A stretch of 64,000 nt of DNA. Origin: Pocillopora damicornis (lineage: Eukaryota). This document shows, piece after piece, positions 13,873 through 61,419 of the stretch (its first letter is position 1; every line of letters begins with the position of its first letter). The stretch is taken from NCBI RefSeq assembly GCF_003704095.1, contig NW_020844518.1, positions 186,001 through 250,000 on the forward strand, given 5' to 3'. The position numbers were made by a program, and so were the translations under genes. Under the pieces are notes generated by a model. The model did not search any database and had not been told where the DNA came from. It saw nothing but the letters and a program-made list of their open reading frames with translations.

Positions 13873-14229
13873 TCAGAATTAGGCGATCTAAACAAACAGT
13901 ATGGATTTTGCGGGTAGAGATCCTGAAATTCTTGGGTACGTAATTAACGTTTTGTGTAAAACACCACAGGACATCCAGCCACTAGATAGCGCTATATCCT
14001 CTACTCTGGATCAAGTTGATTAAGAAACACGGGTCACATATTCGTGTTTCTTGTACGAGGGCGTCGCACGCACACATACTGAGCGAAAAGTTTGGATTCA
14101 CTAGGCTAAAAATTTGATGGAGACGCTGCTAAAATCATCGCCCTCCGTATAATAATCTATTAAACTATCGATCTCCTTTTTGGGTCTGATACACATTTTT
14201 TCAAATTAGATGAGAAGAAATTTAACAGT

Positions 14230-44400: not shown

Positions 44401-47400
44401 TATCAACTAGAGCTGTCAAGTAGAGGAGACACTTAGCGGTTTTTTCCCCTTTTTTATCTCCAAGGTGTCAGCAAATGTGACGGAAATTTTTGTGTTTTAA
44501 TCTTTAGACGCGAATCCCTGAATAAACACCTCGTCACTGAGAAAGGAAATAGAGATCGTAACTTAACACCTGCCCTCGTAAACACGCAGGAAATTATTCA
44601 TTGACAGACCTGAAGTGCTTGCTTCAACAGGAAAATTAGCGAAAAACGTGGTTTTAAGCCAGTTCTTTGGAGTAATAGAACGTGTTGCATCACGAGTTTA
44701 CCGGCGAGTTCGCCATATTCGATTCAGAGCCATAGAAACCCATTGACCCTACTTATAAAGGTGAGTATTGGTTAGTTATATTTGTTCTGTGAGATGAAGA
44801 GAATACTCATCAAATTGAATTACGGTAAGAGCCATTGCAGAAAAAATTGAGATGTCGGGCTTATGTAATTTGTTTCGATGTTATCTCGTTTATTATGTCT
44901 GAGCAGATTCCGGATGGTTCGTGTCGCTGGAATAGATTTGAACTCGACTAATTTAGCCCCTAATATCTTATAGTATATCGTCACTTTAGTATTGTTTATT
45001 GTGTCACTATTTTTGTATTGCCACCGTTCCATAATTGAGATTTTGTCACAAGTAACTACGTTTCTTGAGGAAATGTTTCAAAAAATTTCCCCCGATGTTT
45101 ATTGTTCAACCTAATTCACAACACCCAGGAAATGCGTCAGTAGTTTGTACTTCATAACAAAAAAATTAGCGCAGACTTTATTTAATTTAAACTTGCTAAT
45201 TATGTTAAATATACAACACATTTTTGCCAAGGATACATGTACAAACAGCCATAAAATATCGAAACACTAATATATATATATATCGGCTTAACTATTAAAT
45301 TTTCTGGGGGCCAAGGTTAGATAAAGTATACAGTCTCCATATTTTGGACGGATTGATTTTCCTAGATCATTTTCTGATGATTCAAGCTGTTGTTTTGAAT
45401 GTGCTTAGGCATGTTCAATTTGCTTCGTTTGAGTTTTCCAAGCTTTGATCTCAAGAAAAACTGCGCTGCACATCGAAAGAGCTTTATTAAGTCATGTGAC
45501 CGTAACAGGTCGCCATTACTCTGGCGTAAAATACTCCAAAGGCCAAATATTGCCGAGTTTCATAAGGTTCATTTGGATGTGTTAGACCCCTGCGGCCTAG
45601 AACTGCCGACAAATTCTGCCAAGTAGTACGCATGTACAGTAGTAAAACTGTGCGCGAAAGTTAGTGCACGGAAACCGTCACTAACTTTTTCCTGATATTA
45701 CATGAGAGGGCAAATATTTGCCCGCGGTTGACAACACCTCCGGTTCGAAATATATTCCACGCCATCTCCCGGATTGTATTTCTTTTCCTTTTTCGTGTTA
45801 TCACGACTACCATCACATTCTTCGCTTCTGTGGTAAGCAACGAGATAAGTAAGTTACTGGCCTGAAAACAAATCATGGAAAACCAAAACAATAAGATTTT
45901 TATTAGTTCCAGGCTTTCAAACAACGATATTCGATCTGCTCTCTTGCACCAAATGACACGTGCTAATTGAAATAATTTGCCGCAACAAAAGACAGTAGTT
46001 TTTAGGGCATCACAATAACGTCTTTGACATGAAGCGATGACAGTTCATAAGGCGACTCATTTCAACAGACATCTGTCAACAACTTTATTTATGAGCACCT
46101 TTTGAGACAAAAAAATTTAAACTCCAACTAAACGTGGTGATTCCCTTGTCTGTTGCAAACTAAATCTGGTGTCAACTGAGAATAATTCCATTGCAAGAGA
46201 TTCTACGGTTGTTGTAGGAACTATTTCAAGTATACCCACCATTTAAAAGAGGTGAGTCTAACGCGATGCCTTAGTGTGACACTTTGTGCTATTCAAAGTT
46301 ATACGCTGGGCAGGTATCGCCATAGTTCATCGTGTACATGACTGAAAGGCGTGATTTCGAACGTATTAAACTACCAATTGATAAGTCTAGAAATTTCATT
46401 GTCCTTTTAAAAGAAAGATAAGATAAAAGAGATAAGGTTCGGAGAGAATGCTAACAAAAGGTCCCTCGTATGGAGTCTGTACGGCGTCGTATTTTACAAA
46501 CCCCTCGGGCCAGTTTAAGCCTCGCGATATTGTCCTTCAGAACAATGGCTCGTGGGCCGTAAAATATGTTGTGGTTTACCAACAATACTCAGCAACTAAC
46601 TATCTTCCTTACGCGTCGTTGGAGAAAAATAAACGCTATATCATTGCGCTTTTTATTAGCATCACAATGTAATATTTACGCGGTGCTGTTTACCTTGTCA
46701 TATCCGGTCAAAAGAGGGGGCGAAAACGCTTCATGCAATCGTCGTTTAAAATTGCCATGATTTCGGAGAAAAACTTGACTGGAGAACATCTTTAAGGTAT
46801 TTTGACCTTTAAATTTACGTTATTGCTTCCTAACTATTCCTTCAAGTGGAGTGTAAATACAGTAGTTGAGTTACTTTTCGATTAGATAACAATAACAATT
46901 TTAAGGGGTCACATGATAAAGAGATTAAGAATTGGAAAGGTTTAGCACAGACCATGAAAATCGACGAACGCGTCCTTCTAAGATAAGAATGCCAAACTCG
47001 TTAAGAGCGTTTATATTATGCCCCTAATGAGAATGTTAGCGTTAATCTTTAGCATAACGTTCATTTTAGGTGGCAAAGGGCGAAACTATCATGTTTGTCT
47101 ATAAACCGGATTGTGTTAAAATATGTCACTTTAGGAAACATCTCAGTGATGTCTCGCAACAAGGATTCTATGATTTAGTAAAGACTTCTTAAACAGGCAA
47201 ATCTTGTTTAAAGTTGCTTCGGTTAGCAGATTCTCCACTTGAGTCTTATAATCCGGAAGACTGTAACAACTAGAACTTCATGGGGTGCGATCCTAGACTG
47301 AAAAAAACTGAGCAAAAGTACATTAGAGGGATCAGCGACGTCAATGCACACAAAACCGACAAACCTACTTCAATGTTATTCGATCGAAGAGTTTTAATGT

Positions 47401-50400
47401 GCGGTTGACGAATTAATTGTGCCAAGCGTTGATCGATAGAGAATGACTTCTCTGCCTTTCTATTGTGAAATTTCCTTGGCCATTCGTACGGTTAATCCAA
47501 AATCATTTTCTATTTTATGCTGGCGTCCACTGACACAATCGCAGTGTCTTTGCATAACAAATGCTTTTTACGCTGGACACACGCACGGTTGACTTCACCT
47601 GTCACGTCCGATAAATATCGAGTGTTAAATCCTTCAGTGTAAACAGGTCACGGTCGCAAGAAAAAATTTTTTTGCTGTTGAAAAAAATTAAAAATACTAT
47701 GAACTCGGACCGGAGGAGCGTGATCTACAAGAGCTACTAAACATGTGCATCTTGGAAAGTTTAGACAAGTTCGTCGTTTGCCAATCTTCTCCATTCTTAA
47801 CGAGTCTTGTTTACGTATATTGTTCCCTCTGAAAGGCTTCCTTAAGTTTAAGGAATCAAATTTTTTTTACGGCTTCGATCCTTAATTCCAAGTTGCATGT
47901 AGTTCCGTATTGCTCGTCACAAGGAACGTCTACACGGAAAGTAAGGGAACTCACGTGCAAAAAACACCGAGTTTAATTAAATGAACGTTGGATATCATTT
48001 TTCACCATAAGCCTATTTTAGCAATTTTTAACTGAAAGGATTTAGCTTTAAAAGGTTTAAAAACTTTGGCCGGTCATTGGATGGGCGACCGCTCTGGCAC
48101 TGGAGAGAAAGCATGCACGGATTATCAAAGCGATGAAGATAAACAACATAGCCAACTAGGATCTCCAAACAAAACAAAAACTAATAAACAACAGACAAAA
48201 GTAGACAAACACGCTTCATTTTGTTTTCCTCCGCAAACTTCTCTTTAAGATCTTGGGAAATCGCGTGCGTTTACTAGCTTCCGATATCAACTTTTCCCGC
48301 AATATCCGATGAACTCCAAAATTAAAGCTGATATTGAACATCCAAATCTGCTCGATCGCTAATATTTGATGAGGTAGCACAAAGGGTCTTTTTGAAAATG
48401 GAATTGAATTTTGCAATGAATATCACAGACAGGAATGTACGTACTCTACTTTTTGTTCCTACCTATGGTTTATCATTAATTATTTGTTCATTGTTGTTGC
48501 AAGGGGAAATTTCCTGTGCTAGGTTAATCAATGCATTGATTGCTACGTGTTTTTCTTGTTCGTGAAGAGTGATTTTTTTCTTTACTGTTAAGAAGGTTAA
48601 CCTTACCAACTGCCAACTTAAGAGGCGGCCTCCTCCTCGGTCTTCAAAGCCTTATAAATCACTTTTAGTTGATACAATTTATTTTGAATAAAATTTCAAA
48701 TAATGAAACGGGAATTTTCGTTGATGGACGACTTAAAACAAAATTAACTATCTCGAGTTGTCACTACAAGGATCACTTTGGCACTGCTTATACTAACAAG
48801 TGCATACAAGACATTTGTCTAAAACTTTGAATATTGTGATCCAATTTATCAAACACTAATTATATGTACTGCAATGTAGTGTCAACTGTTTGACGAATAA
48901 ATGTTTCTTTTGTCAGCCACTTATAGAGTACAACCAATAAATATAATTTGGATTTACAGAATTGCCTCGATTCAAATCCGTATACCAATAAAATGATTTC
49001 AACTCGTTATACCTGTGACGCCCTTCAACATCATTGAAATAGTCCTAATCGTTTTATATCCTTTGTTTCCGTCACGTTGGGGATCAAAAAGTGCTATCTT
49101 TTTCGCACGTGCACAAAGCATGTTACCTCTGTCGAAAACACTTCCGATCCCAAACATCCTCACAACTTTTTTTCATATTACGTTGCCAGAAAGTGTCCAA
49201 ATTCTAAAACAGGTCAAAAATTGAGAAAAACTGTCATTTTAACGGACAAATGTAGACATATACTAATATTGATTGTCTTATTACTTCCAATAGCCTTTGA
49301 GTTTAGTAACACTCGGTTGAAGCTGGTACGTGCCTTTGTACTTGTATGCACTTGTAGTAATATTTTTCACAAGTGCTCATCATTCTCATATATATAGATA
49401 TCGTTTCACTCGGAAATTCGATCTTATCTCGGAACTAATAGTTACAAGGATGGCAAGAATTGTTTTCGCATTTAGAATAGAAGTATTTCTTTCCCTTTAC
49501 ACACAAAATAGCACTTACTAATGGCGCCATTAGTCTCTTTATTCATGAAATTTTCACGAATACTGCTTTGATTGCGTCTGGCGTGGGCCATTTCTTAGGT
49601 TCAAGGCCACATTTTTTAACGGCCGAGTGGTGATTCGACGAAACAGAACATCCCGCCTTCGCACGAAATCTCTTGCGGGCGTTTTAAAATGTGACAAAGT
49701 CCTCATCTCTCACTAACACTTTGATGATGGGTAGAATTCGAAAATTGCAAAGTAAAAACAACCAGAAATAAGCTTTTAAAGATCGAAATTTGTTTCAAAA
49801 CGTTTAACATAGACAGTTGATGATTGATGGCTTGAAGTATGTGATAAATAATTGTTTTAACTGACGTATCAAGGCTTGAGACATGGGAAATCATGTATTT
49901 AAATTATAACGAGTGGTTTCTGGCCAAAAGGCAACGATTCACAGAAAAATGTTAATTGCACAATTTGCTGTTGTTAGAAAGACATTTTAACCACATTGAC
50001 TAAAACATTCACTAAAAAAAACCCCGAATAACAAGAGAAACGTTAGTGGATCTCTAAGGTAAATTGTCTTTTTTTTAATCACTTATAATTATTCTCTGGT
50101 GAACCTCAGTATAAAGATAATATCTTAATACTTTTTATGTGCGAAATCTAGCTTCGTTTTTACAATCAACAATTTATATTTCGTTCGGTAGCTAGCATTG
50201 CCGTATCTTTCGGATTTTGTTTTATACTTTACAATATCGTAACGTTTCCGTGACACAAACTCTAAGAAGCGAAATCGGCTCGAGCCGGATTTTTTCCTTT
50301 TGTTCTTTCGGTTTGGTAAGCACGTCTTGAGTTTTAGTTATAGTGGCTAAAGTTTTAACACAGAAGGATTACACACAAACAAATATTCTTATATCCCTCT

Positions 50401-50956
50401 GAATCTCAGAATGGCATATGATAAACACGGTTAACTTTGATGTTCTTCTATTCTCACTCGAGCTTTACCTATTTTTAGTCAGATCTTTTTTGAGCCTCTT
50501 TGCAACATGCTTTAAGTGTAGGTAAAACGTGCTATTAAAGAGAATTTCGATAGATCCTTTTCCGTAAAGTCAGTGGTATCCCCAGATTATCGTAAGCTTT
50601 AAATTAATGCGCGTGTTTTATCAATGATGGTCCATCAAGTAGTACGGCCTGAAACAATACCTTCTCGTCTCACACAATCATTATGAACGTCAGAAACACT
50701 CGGATATCTATTTTAAGGTAAACTATGAAAAAACACAATATTGCAGTGATCAGGTTAATTTAAGTCAGCGTGCAAACGAGTTTGTCCTGCCGGTCTTTGC
50801 TTAAAAGGCTGGCATTGGGAGTCCTCGCGCATTCGGCAAGAACTATTTCGAACGAAGCATAACTGGCTGGTATGGTGTTTGTTAAGTGGTGAGACATGCT
50901 CCAATGCCCTTCTTTACATAGGTTTTTTTTTTCACAATCCACCGGCAATTTTGGCT

Positions 50957-52265
50957 ATGTTAATGGCGGCAAAATCTTCCTTTATTCCGCGTTGTGGCGA
51001 ACCCCACGACTTGGTGCGACAACCACGAGCTTTCTCTAANNNNNNNNNNNNNNNNNNNNNNNNNNNNNNNNNNNNNNNNNNNNNNNNNNNNNNNNNNNNN
51101 NNNNNNNNNNNNNNNNNNNNNNNNNNNNNNNNNNNNNNNCACCGACGATAAATAATGAATGGTCCCATAATTTTACAACTTTTCCCGTGCTTGTGGACCT
51201 GATTCGTTCTTAGTCGCTGTCTCGGTCGGATCCTAAGTGACATTTAACTCGCCTGCTCATCTTTAAACTCGCGGCTCTGATGGACTTCTTTATCAAATCT
51301 AATATTTTCCATAGCATGAACAATCCAATCAGCTACAGAGGTCAATTCCATGTTATGTTATCTTTTCTCTAAGTAAATTGAGGTAAATTAGATGACAGAG
51401 TTCCTAACTAGCGTGTTTTCTTCCATTCGACAGCAATCGTAGAAATATGCTCTGTGGGAGCCGGCTTAGTGAAAATCGCAGGAGTAGAAACCGAGTTCTT
51501 TCTTACAATCGATGATTCTGGAACTCTTCGCGCCACGGTGAGTCTAGATATAAAACGTAGATCTCTTATGAAAATAACTTAGAACAATAGAAAACCCATA
51601 CACTTTTGCAAAGAGTAAAGAACGTAGCTCCCGGTGTTGTGGTCTGGGCTTCTTGCTGTTTATCCAGGCCCCCATGTGAACCAGCTTTGAAGCTGAACTG
51701 GGCCAGCCTGTTTATGTATCGCTAATAAATGAATAAATAGGTGAATAAATACAATTAAACCATTTTAATTCAATCATTATCTATTTTCTAACAGGACGCA
51801 GACAGTGAGGAGTGCGTTTTTGAGGAAGTGATGGTGAAGGATTTCTATAGCGCTTACAAATCATATGCATATTCGAACGAACATTGGACAGTAGCAATCA
51901 GCGATAAGGATGGAAGAGCGTATTCTGCTCGTTGTCAAGGACTTCTTGATTCAGATCTCGAGGCGCATTCATTACCTGAGATGATGCCTGATAGCGACGC
52001 ATCTTCGGACGAGGAGTCTACATCAGAAACCCGAACATCACCCGAGGTTGACTCGGATACATCAGGCTTTGTAGGACTGGATGCATCGCGCTTTCTAGAG
52101 CAGCAAACTTCGCGTCTCTTTGATCTTCTCAATTTTGATCTAGAAGCGTGTTTAATGGCTGAGATACAAGAAGACGCGGGTCATGCTGTTGTGTTTCCCG
52201 ATAATAATACTGACATTGGACCATCTCTGTCCGAGATTCTACGCGAGTTAGGAACCAATTTGTAG
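50957..52265 (+). CDS. FGF: Fibroblast growth factor family protein, atypical, with acidic C-terminal extension
   Basis: Exon 51434-51537 is 104 nt, phase 1-0, like the canonical FGF middle exon (IVEICSVGAGLVKIAGVETEFFLTIDDSGTLRAT). Exon 51795-52265 carries EECVFEE (CxFxE), YSAYKS, WTVAI..DG and HSLP. Probable first coding exon starts at ATG 50957 or 50963 (MAAKSSF...LVRQPRAFS) and enters the N gap. Confidence 0.88.
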
Positions 52266-54790
52266 AGCGCACAAATAGCTTGCCTTGGAGCGTGCCCATG
52301 ACAGGGGATCCTGGTCACAAACGATTTTGTCTTTTTACGAGGCCAGCTGATATTTTTGGGGGCTGGAGGGGGGTTAGATTTTAAAGCGCGCTTCAGAGAA
52401 GAGCAATAATCTTACTGACCACTGAACTGGTGACTTTTGACTGTCATAACTCACCAGCAGATACGTAAGGATAGGAAAGCTCAAGCATCCTTTCTAATTT
52501 ATATAAGGGACTGGTCATTATTCGTCGCGAGGGAGGGGGGGTTGGGGGAGTTTGGTTGTGTCGCAATAAAAATTTACATGATCCTCTCCAAGGCAAGATT
52601 CCACTAGAATTCTCCGAACTTCTCTCTCCCCAGGCGATATTATGACTGGTTCCTAATGACATGCATCCGTGTTCAATTTTTATTGCTCGTGCACCTGATT
52701 TTTAAGCTACATGCAAAAACTGGTGTAATAGAGTTATTTTAGGGTTTTTTAGAACTTTCTTTCTCTTGTGATGAAACTACGCTGTAAACATGCCAAAGAT
52801 TTAAATTTCGTGTTGTGCTGAAATCTGTTTTTGTGTTTAGCAAAGAAAGTTTCTTCCTTTGTTGTGTAACTTTCAGCACCAATAACTGTTACAGTATCAT
52901 TTAAAATTTTTTTAATCGCTCTATTACCTGTGGGTATTATTTTGAATTAAGAGGTTATTTAAGTTATAAGAATGCTTTTATTGCGAAGGATTATAATATT
53001 TGTAATTTAACTATGTAAATAAATAGGTTTATTTGTGAAATGATACAAAGTAAAATTTTACATGTTGTTATGAACATTTTATTTGGCACCAGGTCTTAAC
53101 TTTCGTTCAGTTTTGACAGTTTATGATTTAAAAAGTTAAGAACTGTTAAGGATCGGTGAAAAACTGCTCAGATTTTTTTGGAAAATGAGTAAGTTTTTCT
53201 GTTATTTTGCAATCCGACTCAGCGACAGCAAATAGCGACGAGTGAGTGGAGATGAAATAGTTCACACACCTGCGCATCTGACGGGCTTAATTTTTTCGGC
53301 TTTGAGAAACTGTTCGGAAATTCGACTGTCTAATTCTCCTAATTAGGTGGATTTCTCTTTGGAGAATGTACGTTTGCGAGGTTCAGGTGTATTTGATCTT
53401 CTCACAAAGTGCCATTTCATTTTTCTCTTGTATGAATTCTTTTTGACGGCGACAAAGTGGTAACATGTAGAGAGGTTTCAACTTATCAGTCTTAAAAAAA
53501 AAAACGTGCTGAGAACTCAGTCATTTGTTCAACTATACGAAAGTTAACTTCCCGTCTTGTTGCAGCTTACGCTCTATCCTTCCTTTCTTGGATCCTAGTT
53601 GACCTTCAGTATATTTTACAAATTTTTTTTGGTCGCTATCTTCTCTCCATCTACACCAGATGGAGAAAGGAACTGCGCGAGTTAAGAACCATCCAAGAAA
53701 AAATACAATCTGGGAAGGGCCTCAACTCAAGAGGCACCACTGGGGTTCAGCCCTTCCTGATACGGAAGATCTCAACGGCTATTCGTTTTACTGCTGTAGT
53801 TCCCTCTAGAAAAGTTTTTTTTTAGTAATTCAGTCATCACTAATCTGAGGGTGTCAATGAGGTGATGGCTCTTACGGCTAACGGCAGGAGCCCACTGCTT
53901 TACTTGCTCCTGCTAACGGTTAAAATTTTGGGCATTTCATGGCTAACGGTTAATTTCTTTCCAATACCTTGAAAAATAAGTTGAATTCTTTTTTGAGCCA
54001 AGGATTAAAATTTGTCAATTTTTACGCTAACGGCTGATTTAATTTTGCAGTCTTACGTTAACACCATTTAGCGCCTTTGTTCTGCTCGGTGGTGCATTGA
54101 TATTAAGGCGAATTTACCCCCTGGTCACTGGAGCTAAGTATGTTCAAGGCCGCTTGACAGTGGGCCTCGAGCCCTTTAAACAGGGGTGAAACCGATTCTG
54201 AAAAGAAAGAAAAAAATGTAGAGGAAAGGGATAATTTCTGGGTCATTCTTTGCGCAGCTTGCATTTAAGGCTCAGTTACCTTCAAAGTAACTGAAAAGTA
54301 TTGAAAGACTGATTCCTCAAAAACGTCGACCGACCTACGCGCGAGAAGACAGTGAAGCTACATAAAGTGGTGTCATCGAAAGGAGCGGAACATTCATGTC
54401 AATTTACTGGAAAGTGGAATAATACCTNNNNNNNNNNNNNNNNNNNNNNNNNNNNNNNNNNNNNNNNNNNNNNNNNNNNNNNNNNNNNNNNNNNNNNNNN
54501 NNNNNNNNNNNNNNNNNNNNNNNNNNNTCCTTCGCAACGAGATCTTTAAATGGCGTGACCAGCCTTGTGTAGGTGTTGAGTTACAAGAGTTGACTGGCAC
54601 GCGAATTGATCGTGACAAGATTTTTATTCATGAATAGTTCAGACTTTCCTAAGTAAAGTGCTTAATATAAGGAATACCAGACACTTGAGTCAAGTCACGT
54701 GAATCGCTACTAATTAACGTAAGCTTCAAACGGCATTCTTAACTCCGATCGTCACTAAAGGAGCGTCAGAGTTTTTCGGGCGGTGTCAAA

Positions 54791-55249
54791 ATGAGCAAAA
54801 AACCAGTGTTGAGGGACGAAGGAATGCTTAAAGATATCTTCCAACTGTATGACACTACAGGAGGGGACAAAATTGACGTGAATCAACTCGGTCAGGTTTT
54901 GCGAGCGACAGGGTTGAATCCCACACAGAGCGAAGTCCAGAAAGTGGAAAGAGATGTTGGCAAGTCGACGGTTTCTTTCGAAGAATTCTTGCCGATATAC
55001 AACTCCGTTGCGCAGCACATGACAAGTGTATCAAGTGTGAGTCCTGAACAAGTTGTGGATTGTTTCAAACACTTCGATCGGGAGGGAAGCGGTAGTATTT
55101 CGTCCAGTATGCTACGTCATGTTCTGACTTCGTTGGGCGAGAAACTCACAGATGAAGAATTCGATGCTTTGTCGTCAGGCCATGTCAGCTCAAAAGGAGA
55201 AATTAGCTACGAGGTCTTCATACCTGCCATCATGGCAAACGCTGAATGA
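54791..55249 (+). CDS. MYL6: Myosin essential light chain-like EF-hand protein, single exon, 152 aa
   Basis: FQLYDTTGGDKID..QLGQVLRATGLNPT...SFEEFLPIY...FKHFDREGSG...LRHVLTSLGEKLT are essential-light-chain signatures; aaaATG context. Symbol indicates family, not proven orthology. Confidence 0.9.
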   Translation: MSKKPVLRDEGMLKDIFQLYDTTGGDKIDVNQLGQVLRATGLNPTQSEVQKVERDVGKSTVSFEEFLPIYNSVAQHMTSVSSVSPEQVVDCFKHFDREGSGSISSSMLRHVLTSLGEKLTDEEFDALSSGHVSSKGEISYEVFIPAIMANAE

Positions 55250-57777
55250 TAAAATGGGGAATTTTTTTTATTAAGATGATTCGACTTGCGAGCGAAATGG
55301 AGTGATTGTCAACTGAGAAACAATATCACCTAGGAATACTTGAGAGCTTTTATGTGACATGCCATGTTGACCCTTTGAAACGCGTTGAATTCTATCGCCT
55401 TTAAGTCCGCCTAATTGACCATCAAACTTGTAATCGTTAGTAATTTAGCGCCATAAATAACAAACTCCCTGGAGAGCAAACTACAGGCTTTCTGATAATT
55501 CTGTTCTTTATTATTGTAACCAGAAGAAACGAAGTTAAAGTCGAAATTGAGTTGTCAACACTATGAAAATATTTAGTCTTATAGACGCCTCGATATGTAA
55601 ACAAATGATGTTATATGATGGTCTGATAACACAGAGATATGGGAATTAGGAGACTTGTGAAATTCATTCACTTTTACGGTCTTTCATATGCAAAGGGTGA
55701 TAACTTATTATCTTGTTTCCGAACACGATTGGACGAGTTATGTTCCGTCAGACACTTCAGAAAACGCTCTTGGTAGAATTGAATACTATGCAAATTATGT
55801 AAACACGCAATAATGAGCAATAAATCTATATGTTGACTTTGATACGGAGCCTATTTTCAATAGATCGCAGCTTGAATTCTTCACTACCCAGGCTGTTTTA
55901 GTTCTCATGATATTGCACCTTTCCTTGAGATTTCGTATGATACGCAAATGGTACCCTTTGACAATCGACAAATTTTTGTTAGGTTGAACGGGTTTGACGT
56001 CAATAGCGGTGAATGCAACACCCGTCGGAATCTTTCAACTCCTGGAAAGGACTGGTAACTAATCAGAAAAGTCCAAACCGATCGACATCCTCATTCTTTT
56101 GGATCATGTTAGTATCTTAGCAACTACACACCTACCCCTCCCCTAACCAACATTAACTTTAGCATTGACAACATTAATTTATTATCCATTTTTTGGGTTA
56201 GGGGAGGGGAGGAGGCGCAGTTGCTTAGATACTGACCCATCAGTCCTTCCAAATTATCTTCATAAACAGCACTGCGCTGATAACACTTCGCACATTCTTT
56301 GCATATACTCAGAGCACTTTGTTGGGCACCTTGAACCTTTTTCATTCAATTTAACTGATAACACCTGGTTTCATACGACCTTTTATTTCCAATGCTGTCA
56401 CCAATCTGTATCATTTTATAAATTGAGGCACGTCAAGAGTTTCGTGCACTTTTTCTAAAAATTTGATTTTCTGGACCTTTGTGTTGCAGTGGTCCTTGAC
56501 GGCATCGCAAACGTCTAAATATGATAGAAATAAACAAAGTGGCTACAGGACGCAAGGCTTTAGCGTGCTCTATTTTGACGATGATCGAGGACGCGCGTAA
56601 TAGCAAAACAAAGTAAATATAACGGATGGCAGTTCATTGAATCTGTGATTCGTCAATTTCAATGATGTTCTCGACACTGCTAGCGTGAATGCATTTCTGT
56701 TCGTTAGGTGCCAATCCTTTAGCAATAATAACCCAAAAGTCTAGCTTTTTTCAGTTCAGGATTTTTTTTCCTCATTTTTTGCACCCAAAACCGACCTCGC
56801 TCGAAGACTCACTCTTATCTTGTTATTTTTCAGTCCTTTCAGGCTTGCATGACATCGGGACACGTGTTTGCGTAATGAAGCTAAGACAGCCTATAAATCA
56901 CGTGGCGGAATGGAACTTCAGAGTGTTAGAAAATTAAACTTCGCTTCCAAAGTTTGTATCCCACTAAGTGACACCCTTAAATTTCAACGGGAATGACTTC
57001 CCAAAGACTTCTATTCAGCTAATTACAATATCTAACCAACGGAAGGAGCGCAAATTTACGCTATCAGGAGCCCGGGTTGGTACATTCCAAAGAAATATTG
57101 TGCCTACACCCAACTTTACACCCATTGATTAAAACTGGACAACCCGAGCTCAAGTATAACAGCATTTTTCCTTTACCCTATAAATCCAGTCAGTGCCGTT
57201 GAAAATGTTTCAAAGATTGCGTGACTCTTCTAATTTGACACCTGACGTCATCTCACATGACACGCGATCTACTAGCTAATATTACAAACTTTGAAAATGA
57301 AATCTTCTTTATAAAACTTTATTCGAGGTTTCTAACATAACCAGTTTATTTTAAGATCAATTTTATTTCCTGTCAACCCGAGGGAAATTTGTATTGTAAA
57401 CTAAGCCTGAGAGCTTAAACATGATATTCCGCAAGGCAGCGATCATTACTTTCGTGTCGCAAGACAATTGCCGTCCTTGCCTCTTCCCGTGGTTTCGAAA
57501 ATTATCGAATGTTTTGTGAGAATTATCGAATTTTTTGGGAGAAGTATCGGCTCCAGAGGGAAAAAGGGAACACTAAAGCAGATTGCGTGACAATATTTGA
57601 TTGTTAGCAATTGTTCTTTGCCAAGTACAGTATGCAAAACACGGCTGGCCCAGCCTTCTTTGTGGGTGTATCCATAAAATATCAAGTTTCTCTTTACATT
57701 CCACGCCTCGTGAGTTTTGCCTCTTGAAAATTTAAAACCGACCGTCTGAGTCGAACCACTTCATTTCTTGTTATAAA

Positions 57778-58002
57778 ATGGCTGCGAATTGCGGATGGCT
57801 TTGGTCTTTTGTGTGGCTAATCATTCTGGTAGCCCTCGCCTGGCCTCTAGGAATTCTGGCTGCGGTATTATATGCGATATTTTCACCGTTCGCTGCTTGT
57901 TGTGCCCCGTGTACTGACTTTACTAACTTTCTTATGGAACACGGCGTTAAGTTGCCCTATACAGCCGCTAGTAACATGGTTCATGGACGAGCTGGTTGTT
58001 GA
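57778..58002 (+). CDS. Small Cys-rich membrane protein, 74 aa, unknown function
   Basis: aaaATGg start, higher GC than the flanks, long hydrophobic stretch broken by WP, then CCxxC and an amphipathic helix, C-terminal Cys. Confidence 0.75.
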   Translation: MAANCGWLWSFVWLIILVALAWPLGILAAVLYAIFSPFAACCAPCTDFTNFLMEHGVKLPYTAASNMVHGRAGC

Positions 58003-60619: not shown

Positions 60620-61240
60620 TTATCGTTTCGGTTGGTTCACCTTAAACATTTTCCCATGGCCAGGTATAACCCAGTCCGCCATCTGTAACACTTTAGCCCT
60701 GCTTTCTTTGTGTTTCTCCGGGCATTCGCTGTATTCTTCCCACACATTCTCGTCATCTTCATGTTCAAACAGATCTCCACAGACAATAACTGTTCCATAA
60801 TCAGTGCTTCTTACCACAACACTTACATCTGAGAACGTGTGTCCTGGAGTAGAAATAACCTGGACAGTTTCACCATCAATGCAATACGGTGTTCCTTTGT
60901 CGAAATTTTCGGGAAGATCGGCGTAATAATCCTGCTCTTGCAATATATCATGAGACACCATTTGGACAGCGTTCGGAAACAGGTTCAAATTTCCAACGTG
61001 ATCTATATGGCCGTGAGTGCAGACCACAAAGTTTACTTCTTCTGGTGCATGACCGAGGTGTTTCAGTTTATCAAGCAGACGTTGTTTATCCCTTGGGCTT
61101 CCCGTGTCCACGATTATTCTGTTATTAGGCCCAGTGATTAAAGTGCTTGTTCCATTAGCTCTATATCTGTTTTCCTTGTCTGTGTAACCATAACCGTCGA
61201 GCAAAATAGAAACTTTATACAATGCGCCTTCTTCCGCCAT
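60620..61240 (-). CDS. MBLAC1: Metallo-beta-lactamase domain-containing protein 1, single exon, 206 aa
   Basis: ANGTSTLI, IVDTG, VVCTHGHIDHVGNLNLF (HxHxDH), TPGHT, GDLFE and IPGHG motifs; gccATG-type context. Confidence 0.93.
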   Translation of the reverse strand: MAEEGALYKVSILLDGYGYTDKENRYRANGTSTLITGPNNRIIVDTGSPRDKQRLLDKLKHLGHAPEEVNFVVCTHGHIDHVGNLNLFPNAVQMVSHDILQEQDYYADLPENFDKGTPYCIDGETVQVISTPGHTFSDVSVVVRSTDYGTVIVCGDLFEHEDDENVWEEYSECPEKHKESRAKVLQMADWVIPGHGKMFKVNQPKR

Positions 61241-61419
61241 TTTAGAGGAAGTGAAAGGATAACGAGTGGAAACAGACTGGTGACTAATGTTTTGAAAACC
61301 GCTTGTCAGTTGAGCTATGGGCGCAGATTGTCGTTTACCGTCGAAACGACGACGGTAATCTGTTTGCTGTATAGGAATTGCTGTTTTTCAGTGTGAAAAT
61401 TTCATGAATCTTCACCACC
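61241..61419. promoter_or_regulatory. Bidirectional promoter, MBLAC1/SCOC
   Basis: Only 179 bp between divergent start codons; locally CpG-rich. Confidence 0.75.

Follow-up and report, generated by a model that had tools for sequence, protein, structure and literature searches.

What does an FGF do when the basic surface with which its relatives hold heparan sulfate has become acidic, and when a long acidic tail has been added to its C-terminus? This question is raised by a gene on the plus strand of a 64,000-nt stretch of Pocillopora damicornis DNA (hereafter, the window). A sequence-only reading of the locus had described an FGF that appeared to lack a signal peptide, and had proposed an independently evolved long-range, antagonist or intracellular FGF in a non-bilaterian.

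The locus is an expressed and spliced FGF gene

We mapped reads and contigs from four of 24 listed runs to positions 48000-54300 of the window, and found that the locus is a stony-coral FGF gene that is spliced and expressed. Coding exon 2 (51434-51537, plus strand; 104 nt, residues 121-155) is present in spliced RNA, and its product is 97-100% identical in orthologues. It is followed on the same strand by a GT..AG intron of 257 nt (51538-51794), by the coding part of exon 3 (51795-52265; residues 156-311 and the stop codon), which is supported by RNA and by identity to Pocillopora protein, and by a 3′ UTR running from 52266 to approximately 53025, with RNA contigs that reach 52918 and 53025. 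Splicing of the intron is seen in 20 raw reads with 15 starts, and in contigs from two more RNA runs. First mates of the raw reads map to the minus strand, as expected for plus-strand RNA. The translation of exons 2 and 3 is identical to an uncharacterised 311-aa protein (P0106, P0107) from P. damicornis, P. meandrina and P. verrucosa, and the product of exon 3 is also identical to Pocillopora proteins P0026, P0107 and P0106. Among the differences listed, which leave aside 68 further substitution rows and 6 indel rows, the four in coding sequence, read off the sequence, are all synonymous. No long repeats were found around the gene.

Pfam family PF00167 matches exon 3 alone with an E-value of 1e-5, exon 2 alone with an E-value of 7e-5 (23.3 bits, slightly under the cut-off of 24), and full-length orthologues with E-values of about 1e-26. 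FGF genes typically have three coding exons, the middle one being 104 nt long, and RNA and related loci reveal the same pattern here, with exon 1 supplied by the related loci. The FGF core with canonical exon structure that had been read from the sequence is therefore confirmed by the Pfam matches to exons 2 and 3, the length of exon 2 and the spliced intron.

Coding exon 1 most likely lies within an assembly gap

The sequence-only reading had placed a candidate N-terminus at 50957-51039 (plus strand). RNA depth in the bin containing this segment was 0 in raw reads, compared with 33-35 on exon 3, and 1-3 (1.3-3.1) in RNA contigs, compared with 114-327 on exon 3; positions 50969-51039 are covered by a single low-depth contig (3.85 versus 114). 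Transcripts that extend 5′ of exon 2 enter sequence that is absent from 48000-54300 (about 360 nt in one contig, 210 nt in another, and 17 reads). Allowing up to 3 mismatches, the last 30 nt of this true upstream exon match nothing in the whole window; translated, they give the residues directly before exon 2 in Pocillopora protein P0106. Moreover, the N-terminal 120 residues of nine orthologue queries gave no significant tblastn match in the window. Given the near-zero RNA depth, the different spliced upstream exon and the lack of a significant orthologue N-terminus match in the window, we conclude that 50957-51039 is not the coding start, but intron or a minor UTR exon; its low RNA coverage may reflect unspliced RNA or such a minor UTR exon.

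Immediately downstream is an assembly gap (51040-51139, plus strand), represented by 100 N but larger in reality. This gap is the candidate site of coding exon 1, because a contig from run X1 extends 416 letters beyond 51039 into the gap, because the spacing in related loci agrees, and because the exon is not found elsewhere in the window. Five related loci contain coding exon 1, always as one exon with 355-364 coding nt that lies 250-831 nt before exon 2; the end of the gap is 294 nt upstream of exon 2. Most likely, then, the gap holds coding exon 1, for which we expect 361 coding nt encoding a basic N-terminus and strands beta1-beta4.

Further upstream, and outside the stretch to which reads were mapped, positions 46733-46796 (plus strand) are the probable 3′ part of a 5′-UTR exon, with a donor GT at 46797-46798. 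This segment is the best, albeit non-significant, tblastn match (E 2.3) to the extension found in Stylophora isoform X1. The remainder of the extension aligns in another frame as far as the donor, implying a frameshift between the two frames. In this genome the exon holds an upstream ORF of 20 codons and would put an in-frame stop ahead of the main Met. The segment is thus probably a 5′-UTR exon here, rather than an N-terminal extension. Beyond the donor, conserved non-coding DNA (46845-47258, plus strand) aligns by blastn to L007:16-448 with 67-76% identity (E 3e-9). It lies about 4.2 kb 5′ of coding exon 1, a distance similar to that at the L007 locus, and may be regulatory or further UTR sequence.

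The N-terminus is basic and lacks a hydrophobic leader

The full protein consists of an 88-residue basic N-terminus (18 K/R, 11 D/E), a core of ~128 residues and a tail of 95 residues. Within the first 40 aa, the maximum 9-residue hydropathy was 0.2-1.0 in 15/15 orthologues and no higher than 1.5 in longer isoforms, compared with 2.5-3.1 in four leader-like FGF rows. The real N-terminus is thus basic and, by this measure of hydropathy alone, which is crude, without a hydrophobic leader, such that the protein would be leaderless. The original claim of leaderlessness had rested on the wrong N-terminus; its substance survives in the N-termini of the orthologues. No N-glycosylation sequon is common to 13 orthologues. 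The stretch equivalent to the internal hydrophobic secretion motif of FGF9/16/20 scores 2.16; the corresponding values are 2.02 for an FGF11-14-like row and 2.7 for FGF9/20-like rows. Database records include several 5′ isoforms, and an ESM Atlas search with the N-terminus returned nothing usable.

A predicted FGF fold with an acidic surface in place of the heparin site

Structure prediction, which had been suggested as a check on the sequence-only reading, returned a core that is modelled as an intact FGF beta-trefoil. In an AlphaFold2 model made from a 93-row alignment, pLDDT is 96-98 across most of the core and 90 in the beta10-beta11 block; outside the core, it is 67-76 for N-terminal helices at residues 45-71, and about 50 for the tail. 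The core model aligns with FGF1 over 130 residues (Z 23.6, rmsd 1.6 Å) and fits FGF1, FGF2, FGF9, FGF10 and FHF structures about equally; the top Foldseek match, FHF1b, is tied with FGF9 and FGF1. With both PF00167 and a predicted beta-trefoil, the protein is a member of the FGF superfamily. The listed fold matches are all FGFs, and an IL-1/IL-33-type alarmin was rejected as a reading on that basis; cnidarian IL-1anc proteins are described as combining PDZ with an IL-1-trefoil (PMC13736523).

An acidic segment (51900-51968, plus strand) spans beta10-beta12, where a basic heparan-sulfate site would be expected. It contains 5 D/E and 3 K/R, and its beta12 motif reads HSLP. Net charge over residues 190-212, counted after 12 near-duplicate or non-FGF ids had been dropped, is -1 to -4 in 9/9 stony-coral orthologues, +3 to +6 in 28 FGF11-14-like rows (0/28 at or below zero), and +5.6 on average in 75 other FGF rows, only one of which is at or below zero. 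In the wider leaderless rows, 5/13 are at or below zero, and within the gene's own orthogroup (see below) the value is +5 in two jellyfish-group rows and 0 in P0329 and 3/3 octocorals. The basic site that marks paracrine FGFs is thus absent from all nine stony-coral orthologues, and the acidity that replaces it exceeds chance, as judged from these charge counts. Hence, the acidic segment described from the sequence extends to all nine orthologues; the accompanying change from HFLP to HSLP is genuine at this locus but not uniform, since five of the nine have HLLP. The core as a whole has a net charge of -4 to -8 in stony corals; for 121 other FGFs the median is +6, and three of them reach -4.

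Putative receptor-facing positions are partly altered. A beta1 position that we assume to have a role in receptor binding is Tyr/Phe in 70/75 other FGFs, Leu in 9/9 corals, Ile/Val in 3/3 octocorals, and Arg/Lys in two jellyfish-group rows. P0329, the closest tail-less relative, keeps a Phe here; all other members of the orthogroup lack the aromatic. The beta8 Glu and the aromatic that follows it, which we take to be receptor contacts, are kept in 8/9 corals and, as Y/F, in 9/9, respectively. A literature search on receptor-site residues found no paper. Residues that are invariant in, and specific to, the orthogroup concentrate at 146-158 (beta7-beta8): R153 is found in 2/121 other FGFs, D156 in 7/121 and D158 in 0/121. 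The glycine box, GxxxxGxx(T/S), was found in 0/9 corals and 0/24 other cnidarian-type rows. These 33 cnidarian or cnidarian-grouping rows include FGFs with leaders and basic sites, and only 36/75 other FGFs have the full box; absence of the glycine box is non-discriminating.

The tail contains two conserved blocks

The acidic tail (51978-52262, plus strand) is, among the orthologues found, confined to stony corals, and is mostly low-confidence or disordered in the model. Its 95 residues include 22 D/E (23%) and 4 K/R, and 36% are D, E or S, in agreement with the acidic, Asp/Glu/Ser-rich tail noted originally. Octocorals and P0329 have tails of 5-6 aa, the jellyfish group has tails of 23 aa, and those of stony corals measure 83-96 aa.

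Pairwise comparison of 10 full-length orthologues gave a mean identity of 89% for the core, 77% for residues 43-88 and 58-59% for the acidic linkers of the tail. Two tail blocks reach 85% (block 1; 52086-52166, plus strand; residues 253-279; predicted helix) and 93% (block 2; 52212-52262, plus strand; residues 295-311, ending in T-x-L). A comparison of exon 3 from the window with six distinct loci gave pN/pS values, uncorrected and with pS near saturation (0.5-0.9), of 0.08 for the core, 0.22 for the whole tail, 0.33-0.35 for the acidic linkers, 0.12 for block 1 and 0.01 for block 2. These values point to strong purifying selection on the two blocks. AlphaFold2 places possible helices at residues 252-280 and 300-306 (pLDDT about 50).

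We compared the tails with the PDZ class I C-terminal consensus and the export-signal consensus. The ending [ST]-x-[VIL], in the form T-N-L or T-S-L, occurs in 73 of 75 distinct tails, a set that includes many alleles; 4/144 background proteins have an ending of this type. The C-terminal T-x-L is therefore a putative PDZ-type, cytoplasmic-type end, although the terminal T and L belong to a wholly conserved 17-residue block, and a PDZ ligand is not required to explain them. Export-signal-like spacing, which lies in block 1, is present in 74/74 tails. LxxLL, likewise in block 1, to which LFDLL had been fitted by the sequence-only reading, is present in 67/74 and hence common but not strictly conserved. 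PDZ, export-signal and NLS motifs are all short and common, and chance matches to them are frequent. An ESM Atlas search with the tail returned only FGF leads below 0.8 and detected no relative; neither this outcome nor that for the N-terminus is evidence of novelty. Complex prediction for the tail against the N-terminus and core scored 0.01, which is not evidence either way.

The gene belongs to a cnidarian orthogroup of leaderless FGFs

Full-length orthologues were found in Pocillopora, Stylophora, Oculina, Orbicella, Montipora and Acropora, and in Desmophyllum the gene model is truncated. Profile searching across 1.84 billion representatives yielded 471 matches, of which the best 150 were used. 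In a careful tree of 46 cores, a hand-chosen subset of 147 aligned over 143 columns, the orthogroup forms a clade with 98/98 support that contains stony corals, the tail-less P0329, Dendronephthya, Xenia, a Rhopilema protein named 'FGF12-like', and a relative, P0177. Paramuricea joins the orthogroup in a quick tree of 105 rows. Automatic names across the orthogroup include FGF1-like, FGF11, FGF12-like and FGF20. There was no sea-anemone orthologue among the matches listed, few of which are named; loss is not implied.

The sister group (91/83) comprises leaderless FGFs, including Nematostella A7SU37 and a Porites paralogue, CAH3174110. These two share with the coral protein a leaderless N-terminus and a weakly charged heparin site, but they are paralogues that lack both the beta7-beta8 signature of the orthogroup and the tail. 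Besides the orthogroup itself, a second leaderless FGF group (98/98), the one with A7SU37 and CAH3174110, is formed by P0184, P0198, P0228, P0217, P0191 and P0250; its members have weakly charged or acidic heparin sites, and some have long Ser-rich tails. We also noted P0175 (138 aa), which copies exon 3 but has many substitutions that introduce Phe, Leu, Val and Cys, and possibly originates from bisulfite-converted reads or a decayed copy.

Reference groups in the trees were labelled by motif, and none of them was recognised as FGF8 or FGF19. AU tests rejected two unions of the orthogroup, one with FGF9-like rows (p 0.017), the other with FGF1-resembling rows (p 0.015). Union with FGF11-14-like rows was not rejected (p 0.098; 0.31 with the wider leaderless group); the two are apart in the careful tree and weak sisters (43) in the quick tree. 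Thus, placing the gene among cnidarian FGFs, as had been recommended, defines its orthogroup clearly (98/98), whereas the deep position is not fixed with 143 columns. The trait set likely evolved independently of FGF11-14; to that extent the earlier phrase 'independently evolved' stands, with the proviso that the AU test leaves room for an FGF11-14 grouping.

The trees bear on two further likenesses. FGF20 is the best sequence match among solved structures (1e-20), and FGF9/16/20 resemble the coral protein in having an Arg-rich beta1 and no classical leader. However, grouping with FGF9-like rows, labelled by motif, is rejected; the basic heparin site and beta1 Tyr-Cys of FGF9/16/20 are replaced in the coral protein, and its internal hydrophobic stretch scores lower (2.16 against 2.7). 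FGF9/16/20 are reported to be leaderless yet secreted by means of an internal hydrophobic motif (PMC11733497). FGF1/2 are also leaderless, and FGF1 is closest by structure. Nonetheless, FGF1/2 have a basic heparin site, as does Hydra FGF-1 (10.1101/596734), and grouping with the FGF1-resembling rows, which are labelled by resemblance only, is rejected.

Read along the tree, the charge counts and tail lengths show stepwise change in one gene: the jellyfish group has a basic heparin site, octocorals have a neutral one, and stony corals have an acidic one together with a new tail. Leaderlessness predates corals; what stony corals added is confined to the acidic site and the long tail.

Intracellular and extracellular readings of function

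We propose, with a probability of about 0.55, that this 311-aa FGF-fold protein is an intracellular, receptor-independent adaptor that resembles FGF11-14 in its action. This reading fits best because the protein has no leader and no conserved sequon, has lost the beta1 aromatic, and has a conserved cytoplasmic-type T-x-L. The protein would be made in the cytosol and stay inside the cell as a cytosolic or nucleo-cytoplasmic adaptor, no longer using heparan sulfate or FGF receptors. Its trefoil would bind a putative, probably basic, partner through the new acidic beta7-beta8 surface that has been kept from jellyfish to corals. In stony corals, the tail would add docking sites: the terminal T-x-L for a PDZ scaffold and an amphipathic helix that might act as an export signal or an activation-type motif. 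The basic N-terminus may target the protein to the nucleus or to a membrane. Points against an intracellular role are that leaderless FGFs can leave cells, that part of the putative receptor surface is kept, that P0329 retains the beta1 Phe, and that FHF1 itself reportedly binds FGFRs and activates them (PMC7193404).

Among the three options put forward by the sequence-only reading, the intracellular one is thus favoured, while its analogy to endocrine FGFs and Klotho has no positive support beyond the loss of the basic site. FGF19/21/23 share with the coral protein a beta10-beta12 heparin site that is eroded, as judged by charge, the lack of a glycine box, and a C-terminal tail. However, endocrine FGF19/21/23 carry a signal peptide and the coral protein has no leader, its tail has no detected relative, and no endocrine FGF was identified in the trees. 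We consider it unlikely that the protein is a heparan-sulfate-independent long-range ligand, released unconventionally, with a tail that binds a co-receptor in convergence with these hormones. Such a ligand would account for the loss of the basic site and the gain of a selected tail in the same lineage, on a fold that is modelled as intact, and vertebrate endocrine FGFs are described as pairing the same two traits (PMC8465397). Against it, the protein has no leader, no beta1 aromatic and no conserved sequon, and its C-terminus is of the cytoplasmic type. A neutral site is already present in the tail-less octocoral orthologues, and loss of the glycine box is unspecific; it does not help the analogy, because the box is absent from all 33 cnidarian-type rows. 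In addition, hormone-like FGFs are reported to be vertebrate-only (PMC2948652).

Slightly less probable is a cnidarian branch of the FGF11-14 lineage itself, regulating voltage-gated channels by the same surface. Shared features are a beta-trefoil, the absence of a leader, a basic extension at the N-terminus, several 5′ isoforms, which for the coral gene come from database records, and the intracellular action that we propose. In addition, the top Foldseek match is FHF1b, albeit tied with FGF9 and FGF1, the AU test does not reject the grouping, and automatic names include 'FGF11' and 'FGF12-like', though others are FGF20 and FGF1-like. The diagnostic residues nevertheless differ. FGF11-14 are marked by a Val where canonical FGFs have Asn; this position is V in 28/28 FGF11-14-like rows, N in 62/75 others, and S in 9/9 corals. 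A Leu-Arg pair in the beta4-beta5 loop is described as specific to FGF11-14 (PMC11733497). In corals the pair is A-G (9/9); it is L-R in 28/28 FGF11-14-like rows, a count that holds by construction, since those rows were picked by a motif that includes the pair, which is not so for the Val count. Moreover, FGF11-14 retain a basic heparin site (+3 to +6) where the coral site is acidic, the coral protein has a long, helical, acidic tail, and the two groups occupy separate places in the best tree. The coral protein may act like FGF11-14, but on these comparisons it would not be a diagnosable member and should not be filed there.

A further alternative, an extracellular decoy or antagonist that occupies an FGFR or co-factor without forming a heparan-bridged signalling dimer, appears improbable. 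Reversal of the heparin site with retention of part of the putative receptor surface is what such a protein would display, and a Nematostella ligand, FGFa2, is described as restricting apical organ size, and thus as limiting output (10.1101/2023.06.07.544043). However, a decoy would need leaderless release, the coral protein has lost the beta1 aromatic, and its conserved N-terminal helices and terminal T-x-L are left unexplained.

Among the orthologues found, the tail and the net-acidic core are confined to stony corals, and the tail, having arisen in a skeleton-building lineage, might serve calcification. This is very unlikely: selection is strongest on the hydrophobic blocks (pN/pS 0.01-0.12) rather than on the acidic linkers (0.33-0.35), there is no leader, and D/E make up only 23% of the tail. 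Lastly, although the protein departs from the family at several otherwise shared residues (the beta12 Phe, for one, has become Ser or Leu), a decaying gene with an unselected read-through tail, the outcome that the sequence-only reading had named as fatal to its proposal, is refuted by expression and splicing in three RNA runs, the four listed coding differences, all synonymous, 89% identity of the core among orthologues, pN/pS of 0.08 (core) and 0.22 (tail), and the two conserved tail blocks.

Relation to previous work

In earlier work, cnidarian FGFs are assigned only to FGF8/17/18 and, weakly, to FGF1/2 (PMC3420111), a study of coral FGFs covers FGF8 only (PMC8764167), and an intracellular FGF13-like gene is proposed as ancestor of the FGF family (PMC2948652). 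Searches by six gene identifiers and by topic found no literature on the coral gene; subscription papers and supplements, which were outside the scope of these searches, may include it in a tree. The gene is already present in public annotations. Within the literature searched, what is new is a cnidarian orthogroup of leaderless FGFs and, in stony corals, the charge-reversed heparin site and the selected tail.

The proposal of an intracellular ancestor is directly affected by a conserved leaderless orthogroup that extends from jellyfish through soft corals to stony corals. A broader claim, which we hold tentatively and at a little under even odds, is that cnidarians own a long-lived class of intracellular, receptor-independent FGFs, convergent with or sister to FGF11-14, that was rebuilt in stony corals, by charge reversal of the heparin site and addition of a docking tail, for a coral-specific scaffold or nuclear role. 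If this is true, the idea of an ancestral FGF acting inside the cell becomes testable outside bilaterians. On a practical level, the automatic names hide the orthogroup, and consequently coral transcriptome studies may read the gene as an ordinary FGF ligand.

Neighbouring genes and repeats

An intronless EF-hand gene (window 54794-55249, plus strand; Pfam EF-hand_7, 2e-15), resembling myosin-light-chain or calmodulin-like genes, lies 2.5 kb downstream of the FGF gene. An EF-hand neighbour is also found downstream at L005:5282-5763, with 81% DNA identity, and the linkage of the two genes is conserved, because the same neighbour lies downstream in this other coral locus. A short dispersed repeat (window 53844-54027) is partly matched by many reads and contigs that run off both its sides.

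Elsewhere in the window, a gene with CUB-like exons is present in tandem at about 500-34900 on the minus strand, in at least two copies and probably in three. It also encodes a transmembrane segment and, in a proline-rich tail, PPPY-like motifs, domain names being given by resemblance. Between the copies, at 17096-20536 (minus strand), are exons that we take to resemble an NXPE-type protein. An AT-rich, trinucleotide-type microsatellite (14210-14563) yields Asn-rich and Ile-rich open frames. A small ORF of about 75 aa (57775-58002, plus strand) is cysteine-rich and hydrophobic, and Pfam gave no match for 57781-57999. Finally, a long, apparently intronless ORF (60623-61387, minus strand) contains the metallo-beta-lactamase-fold motif HxHxDH, and is presumably an ordinary animal gene of the MBLAC1 type.
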